Below are positions 19,399-59,434 of a stretch of 64,000 bases of DNA, one piece after another. The stretch covers positions 7,626,001 through 7,690,000 of the forward strand of contig OX597839.1 of NCBI GenBank assembly GCA_951406725.2, in the 5' to 3' direction. The notes under the pieces were generated by a model, which worked only from the letters and a program-made list of their open reading frames with translations, had not been told where the DNA came from and searched no databases. The stretch is from Octopus vulgaris. Lineage: Eukaryota. The translations under genes were made by a program, and so were the position numbers. The stretch's first letter is position 1, and each line of letters opens with the position of its first letter.

Positions 19399-19548
19399 GG
19401 GGAGAGTTTACGAAAAAAACAAAAGACGAAGACAGGTGGTGTACAAAATAAACAGATGTATTAGTATAACGCTCAGGAATAGAAAGTCTTTTACGTTTCG
19501 AGCCTACGCTCTTCTACAGAAAGGGACACAGAAAAAACAAGGAGAGAA
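19399..19548 (-). mobile_element. Short non-coding PLE pLTR-like element in (TA)n (family H3)
   Basis: Flanked by (TA)n on both sides; homologous to 59260-59434 and 41556-41680; contains a minimal HHR-like motif. Confidence 0.7.
19488..19523 (-). ncRNA. Minimal type I hammerhead-like motif (variant core)
   Basis: Sense CUUU-CUGUAGAA-GAGC guag GCUC-GAAA-CG-UA-AAAG; A6 replaced by U; stem III reduced to the ACGU palindrome. Confidence 0.5.
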
Positions 19549-19844
19549 TATATATATATATATATATATATATATATATATATATATATATATATATATA
19601 TATATATACATATATGTGTGTGTGTGTGTGTGTGTGTGTGTGTGTGTGACTTTGCCATTCATCAATCGGAGTCGATAAAATAAGTACAGGTTGAGCACGC
19701 ACCCACCCACCCCGAAATCGCTGACCTTGTACTAAAACCTTGCCACAAATATCACTCATCTATTAGCTTCTTCTATTGAATAACACCGTGTCATGCTGAG
19801 AAGTGGGGGTTTTTTGTGTTTATTTTTTTTTTATTTAAAGCAGA

Positions 19845-19935
19845 GCTACATAGAACATTCCTTTCGATATGTTTGTTTTTACATTCCTCGTGTACGGCAG
19901 GTTAAACGCTATTAGATTTCTCGTTTTCTTCTCCT
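19845..19935 (-). pseudogene. Decayed Penelope-like element ORF fragment
   Basis: Translates KKTRNLIAFNLPYTRNVKTNISKGMF, resembling the R-N-I-I-W-F-N-P-P-Y-x2-N-V-K-T-N-I motif I recall from the post-RT region of PLEs. Confidence 0.5.
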
Positions 19936-20144
19936 GGGCATAAGTTTTTGGTTCGGCAGGAACTTGATATCTTCATTTTAGCGACGTCTTCGTTGTACAT
20001 GTGTGTTGAACGGACGGATGTTCCATCTTCATCAGTTTTCTCACACGTTCCTTTACCAATGTTCGTAACCGACATTTATATACTCTTTTACTGTTTTACT
20101 TGATTCAGTCATTTGACTGCGGCCATGCTGGAGCACTGCCTTTT

Positions 20145-20240
20145 AGCCTCCTGGTTTCTCAGACCTAGTCGAACTGTCCAACCCATGCTAGGATCGAAAA
20201 TGGATGTTAAACGATGATGATGATGATGATGATGATGATG
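20145..20240 (+). mobile_element. RTE-type 3' tail ending in (GAT)n
   Basis: tgtccaacccatgctag..aaaatggatgttaaacgatgatgat. Confidence 0.5.
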
Positions 20241-20305
20241 AATGAATATAATAAAAGATTACAGTTTTTTCAATCTTACATTTATTTTGTAAACAAATGA
20301 TACAA

Positions 20306-20715
20306 TACTCTTTACTCTCTTTTACTCTTTTACTTGTTTCAGTTATTTGACTGTGGCCATACTGGAGCACCACCTTTATTCGAGCAAATTGATCCCGGAA
20401 CTTATTCCTTGTAAGCCCAGTACTTATTCAATCGGTCTCTTATGACGAACCGCTAAGTTACGGGGACGTAAACACACCAGCATCGATTGTCAAGCGATGT
20501 TCGGGGGACAAACACAGACACACAAACATACATATATACATAAACATATATACGACAGGCTTCTTTCAGTTTCCGTCTACCAAATCAACTCACAAGGCTT
20601 TGGTCGGCCTGAGACTATAGTAGAAGACACTTGCCCAAGATGCCACGCGGTGGGACTGAACCCGGAACATTTTGGTTGGTAAACAAGCTACTTACCACAC
20701 AGCCACTCCTGCGCC
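20306..20715 (-). mobile_element. SINE-A, full length
   Basis: Same head and tail as the other copies. Confidence 0.9.
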
Positions 20716-55547: not shown

Positions 55548-56306
55548 TTATAATTTAATTTTTTTTATATATTCTTTTTTGCCGAAATAACAATGTTATG
55601 GGGATGTATACAAACCAACTGTGGCTCTTAAGAGGTTGGTTGATAATGAACAAATACAAGGTAACATACACACACATGTATCAACAGATATACTTTACGA
55701 TGGGCTTCTATCCAGTTTCCGTATTACATATTCGCTCAAGTAATTGGTCCAGGGTTTATAGCAGAAGACTACCCAAGGTTAAATCCGCCTTTTTTCTCTC
55801 ATTTCCTGAGCGTCCAATAACACTATACTTGTTACATGCGCATTGGAATAGGATGATGTTGAAGATGATGATGATGATGATGATGACGACGATAAGGATG
55901 GCGATGATGATGATGAGGAGGAGGAGGGGGAGAAGGATAATGATGATGATGATGATGATGATGATGATGATAACGATAAAGATGGCGATAATTACGAGGT
56001 TGACAATGACGATGGAGGGGATGATGATGATGGTGATGATGATGGTTGTCATGAGGAAATGATGACGTTGGTGGTGACGATGATGATGATGACGGTGAGT
56101 GAGTGTGTATGTGCGTGTGTGTGACAATGATGATGATGATGATGTGTGTGTGTGTGTGTGTGTGTAACAGCTGTACTGTCCCAGATAAAGTGTCAACAGA
56201 ATTCCATTTTTTAGCTTTTAATTAAATTTTGCATAGGCAGCAGATGATCGAAGATTAAGTTCTTCCTGATAGAAAAAAAAAATACAGAACACACTAACCA
56301 AACATA

Positions 56307-57321
56307 GCGCATGCGTGATTGAGTGGTAAGAAGTAAGAAGTGGTGAGCTGCCAGAAACGTTAGCACGCCGGACGAAATGCTTAGCAGGTATTTCGGCTAC
56401 CGTTACGTTCTGAGTTCAAAACCGCCGAGGTTGACTTTGTCTTTCATCCTTTCGGGGTCGTTTAAATAAGTACCAGTTACGCACTGGGGTCGATATAATC
56501 GACTTAACCCCTTTGTCTGTCCTTGTTTGTCCCCTCTGTGCTTAGCCCCTTGTGGGTAGTAAAGAAATAGGTAATTCGTCTGCCGTTACGTTCTGAGTTC
56601 AAATTCCGCCGAGGTCGACTTTGCCTTTCATGCTTTCGGGGTCGATTAAATAAGTACCAGTTACGCACTGAGGTCGATGTAATCGACTTAACCCCTTTGT
56701 CTGTCCTTGTTTGTCCCCTCTGTGCTTAGCCCCTTGTGGGTAGTAAAGAAATAGGTAAATCGTCTGCCGCTACGTTCTGAGTTCAAATTCCGCCGAGGTC
56801 GACTTTGCCTTTCATGCTTTCGGGGTCGATTAAATAAGTACCAGTTACGCACTAGGGTCGATATAATCGACTTAACCCCTTTGTCTGTCCTTGTTTGTCC
56901 CCTCTGTGCTTAGCCCCTTGTGGGCAATAAAGACATAAGAAGTAAGAAGCTTGCTTCCCAACCACATGGTATCGGGTTTCAGTCACACAGTGTGGCACCT
57001 GGGGCAAATGTCTTCTACTATAGCCTCGGACCAACCAAAGCCCTGTCAATGGATTGGTAACCGAAAACTGAAAGAAGTTCAACGTTAACGTTTGTGTGTG
57101 TGTGTGTGTGTGTGTGTGCCTGTGTGCATTTTATTCCCGTCATCGCTTGACAACAAGCGTACGTGCGTTTACGTAGCCGTAACATAACAGTTCAGCAAAA
57201 GCGACCGATAGAATAAGTACCGTTCTTAAAAAAGGTAAAATGAGTGCTGATATCGATTTATACGACTGAAAGTTCCTCAGGACGGTGCTCCAGCATGGCT
57301 GCAGTCTAATCAATGAAACAT
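56307..57321 (+). mobile_element. Old SINE-A interrupted by a SINE-B trimer
   Basis: Head gcgcatgcgtgattgagtggtaagaag resumes at about 56943 with aagaagcttgcttcccaaccacatgg. Confidence 0.75.
56341..56935 (+). mobile_element. SINE-B tandem trimer
   Basis: One head plus three units of about 184 bp; flanked by the duplicated taagaagtaagaag (56327-56340 and 56936-56949). Confidence 0.9.
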
Positions 57322-57994
57322 GTTTAGGAAGGAAGATAGAGATAGCCTAATAGCTGCACACGTAACGAAAGCAATGGAGGAACATTGCGCTTTTAGAAGA
57401 AGAATATTTATTGTTTTTAGAAACTACAAATACGTTGTATGTAACAACTGAATTGATATTGTAGCATTTGTAAAGAAATGCCCAGAGAAATTAAACTATA
57501 ACCCCGACCCCTAAGAGTGCAACAGACAGTCGGAACAGAGAAAATGAGGCTATCATTTGGGGTAGTAGGGTTGAAGAGAGAAAGAGATACTATACTCGTT
57601 TGTACCCGACAGTAAACCTATTAATTAGTTTATATATGTATATATGTTTATGTATATGTGTGTGTACGTGTGTTTGTGTCTGTGTATGTATGTGAGCATA
57701 TATATATATATATATATATATATATATACATATATACAATGTATACATATATATGTGCACACTCATTTATATATATATATACACAAATGCATATATATAT
57801 GAGTGTGTATACATGTGTTTGTACATATGTTTATATGAGTGTGTGTGTGTGTGTGTGTGTGTGTGTATGTGTGTGTGTGTGCTTGTGTGCTTGTGTGTGC
57901 ATGTATGTATGTATGAACATAGATATTGAAATCCACCAGAATCAATATTAGAGATTTTGGAGTGTGTGGTAGGTACAGTTACAAGCGATAGAAA

Positions 57995-58620
57995 CACCAA
58001 TATCACCACAACCACCACTACCACTACCACCACCACCACCATCAGCATCACCACCACCACTACTACAACCATCCAACACCACCATCACATCACCACCACA
58101 ACCACAACCACCACGACCACCACTATTACCACTACAACCACCACAACCACCACCACCACAACCACCACGACCATCACCATCACCACCACAACCACAACCA
58201 CCAATACCACCATCACCACCACAACCACTATCACCACAACCACCACCACCACCAATACCAACACCACCACCACCAACCACCACCACCACCTCCACCACCA
58301 CCACAACCACAAGCACAACCACCACAACCACCACCACCACCACCAGGACCACAACCACAACCACCATCACCACCACAACCACAATCACCACAACCACCAC
58401 CACCAATACCAACACCAACACCACCACCACCAGGACCACAACCACAACCACCAATACCACCACAACCACAACCACCAATACCACCACTACCACCAGGACC
58501 ACAACCACAGCCACCATCACCACCACAACCGCAATCACCACAACCACCACCACCACCACCAACACCACCACATCCACCACCATCACCATCACCATCATCA
58601 TCATCATCATCATCATCACA
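57995..58620. repeat. (ACC)-rich compound repeat
   Basis: Direct inspection. Confidence 0.9.
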
Positions 58621-59259
58621 CAATCATTTAAAAGAAAACGAAAGAAAAAGCAAAATAAAAACAAAAACGAAACAAAGAATAGCCCTTATGAATGAAGTAC
58701 AATTCAAAAACGAAGCAATATATTTTTTTAAAAATACAAGCAAAATACAACAAGAGTAACGACAGCAACCACAATCTCCCCCACCCCCTTTGACCCCCAC
58801 CCTCCCCCCCCCAAAAAAAGAAACATATTTCGGCAAACTGGTGCCATCCATTGTCTGCAGGAACATATGGTATTCACGACCAAGCATTTGGATATCAAAT
58901 TATTAGCTCACATTGATTTATGATATCATTCAAAGAACTACATTGCCCGCTCATTCGTATCCAATAACAACAGGAAAGGAATTAAAAATAAATAGATAAA
59001 TTTAAAAAACAAAAAAACAATCGCAAAAATGAATAACAGCCAGTTAAGTATATGCAGGAAAAAAAGGAGAAGAATTTCATGGCAGACCTGCAGCAGAAAT
59101 TACTTCAGTCAGTTTCTTCGTTTTTTTTTACAGATGCACCTTAATATTGATGTGTATACGAGTGTGTGTAGATGTGAATGTGTGTGTAAACTCAGAGTAA
59201 CAGGTTTTGTTGAATTTTCTGCTGCTTTGTATATATATATATATATATATATATATATA

Positions 59260-59434
59260 CAGAGGGAGAATTCAAACACACAAAAAAAAACAACAAAAGA
59301 CAGGTGGTGTAGACAACAAACAGACGTATTAGAGTAACGCTCGGGAAGTGAAAAAGTCTTTAACGTTTCGAGCCTACGCTCTTTCACAGAAAGGAAACAG
59401 AAAGAAACAAGGAGAGAAAAGAATGTGTAGGGGC
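59260..59434 (-). mobile_element. H3-type pLTR-like element in (TA)n with an HHR-like motif at 59358-59393
   Basis: Homologous to 19399-19548; sense CUUU-CUGUGAAA-GAGC guag GCUC-GAAA-CG-UU-AAAG; (TA)n on both sides. Confidence 0.7.

Follow-up and report, generated by a model that had tools for sequence, protein, structure and literature searches.

Hammerhead motifs in a stretch of the Octopus vulgaris genome mark tails of Penelope-like elements and likely non-LTR retrozymes

A stretch of 64,000 nucleotides of Octopus vulgaris DNA (assembly GCA_951406725.2, contig OX597839.1, positions 7,626,001 to 7,690,000 of the forward strand; hereafter the window, in whose numbering positions are given unless a contig is named) carries 11 type I hammerhead ribozyme motifs. 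The motifs fall into nine insertions of seven families, here called A, A2, B, C, D, E, and F. The explanation that we favor, and regard as probable, is that these insertions are of two kinds. Families A, D, E, and likely A2, are 5′-truncated tails of autonomous Penelope-like elements (PLEs). Families B and F, which are related (B/F), and family C are closed units of 354 to 497 nt that lack open reading frames (ORFs) and are likely retrozymes of the non-LTR kind (LTR, long terminal repeat), which an enzyme of the Penelope type would have copied into (TA)n.

RESULTS

Hammerhead motifs in the window

An initial annotation, made from the letters of the window alone, had listed 11 hammerhead or hammerhead-like motifs in at least five families. 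The type I layout was found at all 11 positions, each within about 15 nt, and the number of families rises to seven. Since the motifs at 34858 and 37713 and those at 52407 and 52739 are inverted duplicate pairs, the 11 motifs reduce to nine insertions (Table 1). A descriptor of three stems with at most one core deviation, written after the motifs had been seen and hence not blind, gave 10 matches at 9 of the 11 sites, compared with a mean of 0.85 (maximum, 4) over 40 dinucleotide shuffles done block by block. Demanding a strictly canonical core left 4 matches at 3 sites versus 0.125 in shuffled sequence. The two sites missed by the descriptor, 41780-41806 and 59362-59389, are decayed copies of real families.

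The core CUGANGA...GAAA...UH with three stems is canonical in B, C, and E. The other families carry single-position or paired variants: A6U in A, U4C in A2 and F, and U3-A8 in D. One stem III form in the initial annotation needs correction. The motif near 34445 (family C) has AUCGGU, which is also the family form among the matches listed, and ACCGGU belongs to the PLE. The annotated surroundings stand: a (TA)n array adjoins one or both ends of seven of the nine insertions, the exceptions being the hosts at 26 kb and 49 kb, and inverted arms are present in all four hosts said to have them (26 kb, 34.3 kb, 52 kb, and the PLE).

An Rfam scan of the window returned no hammerhead family among the best 150 of 472 matches, with microsatellite matches dominating. 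Across the surveyed genome (2.8 Gb in 227 contigs, rich in microsatellites), RF00163 gave scores for only 73 of 263,217 candidates and six matches, which is unusable as a count. Taken together with the covariation described below, the sequence evidence supports hammerheads that are real and under structural selection, and self-cleavage of the window's motifs is predicted.

Table 1. Hammerhead-bearing insertions and the ORF1-only element of the window
Feature	Position	Strand	Details
Family A, 5′-truncated 3′ end of autonomous Neptune-type PLE	19399..19548	-	minimal A6U hammerhead 19492-19519; (TA)n on both sides
Family B, likely retrozyme	26281..26630	-	minus arm 26281-26569 of sub-unit length, short end; inverted stub 26566-26630, long end; canonical hammerhead 26456-26489
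Family C, likely retrozyme, 497-nt unit	34268..34646	+	truncated plus arm 34321-34646, short end; inverted stub 34268-34319; hammerhead with canonical core 34450-34492
Family D Neptune-type PLE, minus arm	34669..36542	-	RT-thumb-GIY-YIG (RT, reverse transcriptase) frame 35054-36385; U3-A8 hammerhead 34858-34883; 3′ end of the long (tailed) kind, at (TA)n
Family D PLE, inverted plus arm	36602..37886	+	97% identical, with a frameshift close to 37097; hammerhead 37713-37738; 3′ end of the short kind, at (TA)n
Family A PLE tail	41555..41679	-	A6U hammerhead 41588-41615; 3′ part broken by another repeat
Family A2, probable tail of A-related PLE	41702..41906	+	decayed hammerhead 41780-41806, U4C family core; flanked by (TA)n on each side
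Family E, 3′ end of GIY-YIG-encoding Hydra-like PLE	49038..49205	-	canonical-core hammerhead 49149-49199; long end, no (TA)n
ORF1-only element (RNA-binding and CCHC knuckle)	49900..52015	+	one frameshift; in SINE-like (short interspersed element-like) repeat; 15-bp duplication 49885-49899 / 52016-52030
Family F, likely retrozyme, 362-nt unit	52273..52949	+	inverted arm 52273-52547; 1.1-unit plus arm 52544-52949 ending at (TA)n
Family F hammerheads, U4C	52407-52439	-
Family F hammerheads, U4C	52739-52771	+
Family A PLE tail between two (TA)n arrays	59260..59434	-	decayed hammerhead 59362-59389, C3-G8 pair lost

B/F and C are ORF-less units that close on themselves

The units of B (354 nt), F (362 nt), and C (497 nt) contain no ORF. 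Sequence upstream of the hammerhead re-enters the unit's own tail in 11 of 30 B loci, 11 of 30 F loci, and 5 of 30 C loci, the remaining loci being truncated, inverted, or interrupted. The tail-to-head junction is identical in unlinked loci of these families. B and F are about 72 to 78% identical to each other, and both the closed unit and covarying stems have been kept. In the 90 B/F/C loci, queries with the proteins of A, D, and E detected no PLE frame that runs into the motif on its own strand, with the limit that these queries miss distant clades. The only long upstream sequence shared among the 90 loci is an ORF1-only cassette, described below. Dimers with consecutive hammerheads were seen in four loci picked for close spacing (L332, L333, L334, and L335).

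In a B/F alignment of 28 rows, 9 of 15 stem pairs have changed on both sides (61 cells versus 19.9 in shuffled alignments) and 92.6% of stem cells are paired, where kinship among the sequences inflates the covariation measure. Sampling by a downstream motif common to B, F, and their relatives yielded 14 readable hammerheads in 30 loci, with nine different stem III sequences. Seven perfect palindromes were among them, and all 14, as we read them, can pair with themselves if G-U pairs and one central base are allowed. Predicted minimum-free-energy folds of monomers mostly did not form the hammerhead, and these folds, like the uncontrolled dimer energies, were given no weight. Circular folds of single F and C units were better than those of mononucleotide shuffles, a weak control. 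Contigs from four presumed-RNA runs span a retrozyme unit and its junction; such contigs carry no information on ends or strand, and genomic tandems and circles give the same junction. B/F and C are likely non-LTR retrozymes.

The B element of the window sits centrally in a separate AT-rich inverted repeat (26158-26275 and 26620-26740, arms 83% identical), which is possibly a miniature inverted-repeat transposable element.

B/F and C carry the insertion footprint of Penelope-like elements

Two fixed 3′ ends, about 40 to 100 nt apart, were found in each of B, C, D, E, and F. Where two copies lie head to head, one outer end is short and the other long in 35 of 41 B/F pairs, 11 of 13 C pairs, 8 of 9 D pairs, and 8 of 9 E pairs (counted after removal of duplicates and of any pair within 120 nt of the edge of its locus; binomial P of 2e-6 to 0.02 against 0.5). 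The D and B hosts of the window obey this short/long arm rule. Among genomic loci, (TA)4 or longer lies downstream, within the length of the element, in 20 of 30 A loci, 12 of 30 B loci, 27 of 30 C loci, 24 of 30 E loci, and 21 of 30 F loci, compared with 0.14 to 0.22 of background windows. The B/F/C footprint of tail, 5′ inversion, and microsatellite target is closer to that of D and E than to that of A.

Two-site internal priming and the cutting of both strands have been demonstrated in vitro for a lizard PLE (PMC11167929). The two 3′ ends of B, C, D, E, and F match the PLE tail that such priming sites produce. Because the footprint is the same as that of PLEs, B/F and C were likely inserted by Penelope-type enzymes.

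Families A, D, and E represent 3′ ends of protein-coding PLEs

Family A is linked to its own ORF. In 27 of 30 loci retrieved with the A protein, the hammerhead lies 373 to 931 nt downstream of the ORF, and the core is A6U in all 27 of these motif-bearing loci. U6 with the rest of the core intact was likewise present in 28 of the first 30 matches to the family A pattern. Long copies run from the hammerhead through a C-rich untranslated region (UTR) into a frame for RT and endonuclease (EN), and one locus (L034) has tandem ORF-UTR-hammerhead copies. The 3′ end of the family, at (TA)n, is fixed, and the extent of 5′ truncation varies. For A2, none of 20 loci reached an RT or GIY-YIG frame within 1.5 kb upstream. 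Its upstream sequence is a long CA-rich tract like that of A, with no loop back into its own unit, and A2 is probably the tail of a PLE related to A. In the window, A and A2 stand head to head across a shared (TA)n array at 41680-41701.

Family D has an open frame of 811 codons with RT and GIY-YIG domains, in which RVT_1 scores above the cutoff and GIY-YIG is weak. D units occur in tandem at 4.0 kb, and U3-A8 is the family form of the hammerhead. The 95 scored matches at 99 to 100% identity genome-wide indicate a young family. The translations of both A and D have a C-x4-C-x2-C linker before GIY-YIG that fits the Neptune CX2-5CxxC motif. A and D are classed as Neptune type by this linker, a motif that Nematis also has. 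A 12-nt match between the 3′ regions of A and D was considered and set aside as not significant (E = 0.065). In the window, D and C lie tail to tail on one (TA)n array at 34646-34668.

Canonical PLEs have one ORF. All four full-length D copies (L326-L329, e.g., C12:3440000-3449900) have an additional frame of 495 codons, which starts 26 nt past the tail and overlaps, in a different phase, the RT frame of 811 codons. Its first 56 codons would be joined in frame to the RT frame by removal of a 1,013-nt GT-AG intron, so that the additional frame is perhaps an intron without stop codons, or else a second ORF.

Family E has its hammerhead downstream in 24 of 30 loci retrieved with a piece of the E endonuclease. 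The linked frame is the endonuclease part only (GIY-YIG, E = 0.07). Judged by eye on that part, its translation lacks the CCHH motif and matches the description of the Hydra clade, which includes CxxC and CxH-like motifs around the conserved E and N, so that E looks Hydra type rather than Neptune. The A and D protein queries failed to detect the E frame, which shows that such queries miss PLE clades that are distant. Genome-wide, a Hydra-like family with about 79% identity to E is present in many copies of equal score, with open frames of up to 717 codons, and is a candidate for an active helper of the retrozymes.

A, D, and E, which make up five of the window's insertions, are thus 3′ ends of autonomous protein-coding PLEs. 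With A2 as a probable member, six of the nine insertions are ordinary or probable PLE debris.

An ORF1-only cassette is inserted upstream of the B/F hammerhead

A 1.7-kb ORF1-only cassette interrupts two loci in each set of 30, for B and for F alike. The protein that it encodes contains a CCHC knuckle, and likeness to CCHC/ZCCHC3-type RNA-binding proteins at 0.90 to 0.93 is no more than a lead. Eight comparisons over the first 250 codons gave ratios of nonsynonymous to synonymous substitution (dN/dS) of 0.09 to 0.18. In all 15 loci chosen from F-linked matches, the cassette is inserted at F positions 196 to 215 with a target duplication, about 50 to 70 nt upstream of the predicted cleavage site of the retrozyme. 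Copies pile up in tandem at this site, even within a single F unit. Of the top 30 matches to the cassette protein, 17 share a single site in F, and the other 13 occupy fixed targets elsewhere. No ORF2 was found beside the cassette in 19 loci, and no search aimed at a separate partner was made. ORF1-only "half-L1" elements are known as HAL1. We infer that the cassette is a Tx1-type target-specific derivative of a long interspersed element (LINE).

The interrupted 2-kb B/F loci were also considered as a gag-carrying master element. This was rejected as the main story because related cassettes occupy other targets with poly(A) tails and stack in one F unit, and because 9 of 10 exact junctions hold a full-length cassette whereas PLE copying truncates heavily. 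Two loci (L317 and L320) have 5′-truncated cassettes without upstream F, which fits occasional comobilization or later deletion. Sister subfamilies of the cassette are inserted in tandem at other fixed targets (L232, L233, and L240-L250), some with poly(A) tails.

The ORF1-only element of the window itself lies outside the hammerhead hosts and is a distant relative of the B/F-targeting cassette (34 to 45% identical in two stretches).

Genome-wide abundance

Exact patterns for each family, all with zero matches in the reversed control, give lower bounds on motifs and not on insertions. Family A is by far the largest (21,604), followed by E (2,465), D (836), A2 (535), C (371), B (364), and F (283); the downstream motif common to B, F, and relatives occurs 3,025 times. 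A loose canonical-core pattern matched 54,642 times versus 6,746 for the reversed pattern, overlapping matches being counted twice. These matches together with family A, whose core falls outside that pattern, amount to about 70,000 or more motifs, a density of about 2.5 per 100 kb. A sample of 20 stretches of 10 kb each, taken from C2-C21 at round coordinates, held 9 descriptor matches versus 3.7 in shuffled sequence, plus 5 A-like motifs. With 14 to 17 motifs per 100 kb, the window is about five times as dense as the genome and is not typical of it. The very large genome-wide count foreseen in the initial annotation is thus borne out, and its premise that the density of the window might be typical is not.

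The first 3.4 Mb of contig C1 hold many more hammerhead families that are absent from the window, one of which, with a 41-nt motif, makes up about one-third of the 100 matches listed.

Other repeats of the window

Head-to-tail arrays of 175- to 207-nt units of a SINE-like repeat lie at 4874-5406, 56386-56937, and 62474-62887. Two inverted repeat pairs (23287-23667 with 31581-31967 and 6643-7228 with 25115-25570) are 95% and 77 to 93% identical, respectively.

DISCUSSION

The data are best explained by a combination of PLE tails and PLE-dependent retrozymes. For B/F and C, tandem transcripts would cleave themselves as dimers through the palindromic stem III, and the resulting unit RNA, as a circle or multimer, would be bound by PLE protein. 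The PLE endonuclease would cut both strands of TA-rich DNA. The two cut strands would then each prime reverse transcription, with a separate internal start site for either strand, and joining of the two cDNA products at their 5′ ends would leave the inverted arms.

Several observations weigh against this explanation. The majority of B/F/C copies do not reach the length of one unit, and the sample contained no long arrays, so that most genomic copies cannot form a dimer in cis. B adjoins (TA)n in only 12 of its 30 loci. Shared termini or a shared insertion signature with PLEs would be expected from the initial annotation; B/F, C, D, and E share the footprint, but B/F/C have no terminal sequence in common with A, D, or E, the best matches being AT-rich and 10 to 25 nt long. 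Nor is the footprint universal among the PLEs themselves, since family A has a single 3′ end and a 5′ inversion in 1 of 27 cases. The blindness of the protein queries to distant PLE clades leaves room for a rare ORF-bearing parent of B/F or C. In published work, a single one of the nine retrozymes predicted in frogs cleaved in vitro (10.64898/2026.07.22.740005), and hammerhead mutants left PLE insertion in vitro unimpaired (PMC11167929).

A rival account is that every family, B/F and C included, is debris of autonomous PLEs and that the closed units, lacking an independent life cycle, arise repeatedly as fragments of pseudo-LTRs or through internal deletion. Five of the nine insertions are demonstrably PLE tails, frog retrozymes match PLE terminal repeats (10.64898/2026.07.22.740005), and distant clades escape the queries. 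Against it stand the same tail-to-head junction in unlinked loci, the retention of the closed unit and covarying stems across the divergence between B and F, and the cassette as the sole long upstream sequence shared among the 90 loci. We consider this account improbable. Still less credible is amplification at the DNA level, as satellites or foldbacks in which the ribozymes are relics. Recombination can yield dimers and inverted pairs, and cores expected to be slow (A6U and U4C) dominate A, A2, and F; the stems nevertheless covary, and target-primed reverse transcription is indicated by 3′ ends that are fixed where 5′ truncation varies, by the spread of copies over many contigs, and by the short/long arm rule.

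The initial annotation had proposed that all non-PLE hosts are noncoding ribozyme parasites of Neptune PLEs, very numerous genome-wide if the density of the window were typical, with intronic copies that could cleave host pre-mRNA. This describes B/F and C correctly in form, and motifs do number in the tens of thousands. For A and E it is already refuted by linkage to their own ORFs, and D too is the tail of a protein-coding element. The Neptune assignment holds for A and D by the linker motif; the E endonuclease, without CCHH, fits the description of Hydra. Given also a genomic density of about 2.5 rather than 14 to 17 per 100 kb, and the failure of lone minimal hammerheads to cleave in vitro (PMC4209133), the proposal as a whole is very unlikely.

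A bolder version of the two-kind explanation, which we put forward tentatively and think rather doubtful, is a three-tier chain of parasites. A Penelope enzyme would copy small ribozyme circles from both cut strands, with a different fixed start site for each strand. The stem III palindromes of the subfamilies would serve as self-recognition codes for cleavage as dimers. An ORF1-only LINE derivative would home just upstream of the ribozyme, exploit retrozyme transcription, and, in some cases, be carried as a composite of 2.1 kb by the Penelope machinery.

Most motifs of the window are expected PLE debris. Mobilization of animal retrozymes by PLEs has so far rested on co-occurrence and phylogeny. 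Here, ORF-less units bear the same two-ended footprint as young, intact PLEs of the same genome, which is direct genomic evidence. The short/long arm rule predicts different priming sites for the two cut strands, and the fixed A6U, U4C, and U3-A8 cores of amplifying families bear on whether PLE hammerheads need to cut.

Comparison with known systems

The system is of a known kind, in a lineage for which no description was found: literature searches, subscription papers, Repbase entries, and supplements aside, returned no publication about hammerheads or retrozymes of cephalopods. The main text of a 2026 repeat annotation for octopus, in which 31 Penelope-like families are given as recently active, does not mention ribozymes (PMC13282606). 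Hammerheads in PLE ends, TA targeting, and retrozymes as PLE dependents are already in print for other animals (PMC4209133, PMC8557442, PMC7229834, and 10.64898/2026.07.22.740005). The comparisons that follow are with the available text of these papers.

Cervera and de la Peña (2014) described minimal type I hammerheads in metazoan PLE pseudo-LTRs, with a U3-A8 variant, lone truncated copies, and low activity seen only as dimers (PMC4209133). A, A2, D, and E resemble these in the type I fold, the palindromic or absent loop 3, the extra base after A9, the U3-A8 variant, and the thousands of lone copies from truncated elements. The octopus differs in scale (about 70,000 or more motifs versus 2,000 to 9,000) and in the fixation of A6U in a young, intact lineage (27 of 27 motif-bearing ORF-linked loci), which the available text of that paper does not describe. 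Natural A6C and U4C cores are slow but active, and A6U is absent from the main text of that study (PMC3088659).

Inversions, tails, and (TA)n targets are known in PLEs, with (TA)n stated for Hydra and Naiad and hypothesized for Neptune (Craig et al., 2021; PMC8557442). The octopus PLEs share with the Neptune and Hydra EN+ elements of that study a C-terminal GIY-YIG, the CX2-5CxxC linker (A and D), partial tandems, an inverted 5′-truncated copy, an optional tail, and insertion at (TA)n. They depart from them in the length of the tails (about 40 to about 100 nt versus 30 to 40) and in the upstream 495-codon frame of D that overlaps the RT frame in four of four full-length copies.

Retrozymes have been reported in coral, mussel, and axolotl, with PLEs as candidate helpers (Cervera and de la Peña, 2020; PMC7229834), and in frogs as PLE derivatives with mild intron depletion (Li, Clavereau, and Pollet, 2026; 10.64898/2026.07.22.740005); both studies proposed mobilization by PLEs. 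Like metazoan non-LTR retrozymes, B/F and C are ORF-less, have one type I hammerhead and head-to-tail copies, and have a G+C content of 32 to 45%; the size of the B/F unit matches the 350- to 390-bp mussel repeats (PMC7229834). Unlike the retrozymes in these accounts, B/F and C, known here from the genome sequence, occur mainly as truncated single units or as inverted pairs within (TA)n, have two fixed 3′ ends, and follow the short/long arm rule, a direct PLE footprint. Unlike the frog families, they have no homologous PLE terminal repeat in the comparison with A, D, and E.

LINEs of the Tx1 clade target other transposons, as Tx1 does in Tx1D and Tx1-Mar in Mariner-N4 (PMC4494074). The octopus cassette is like them in its fixed site within another mobile element, its tandem piling, and its target duplication. 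It differs from them in that its target is a likely ribozyme retrozyme and that it carries an ORF1-like gene alone.

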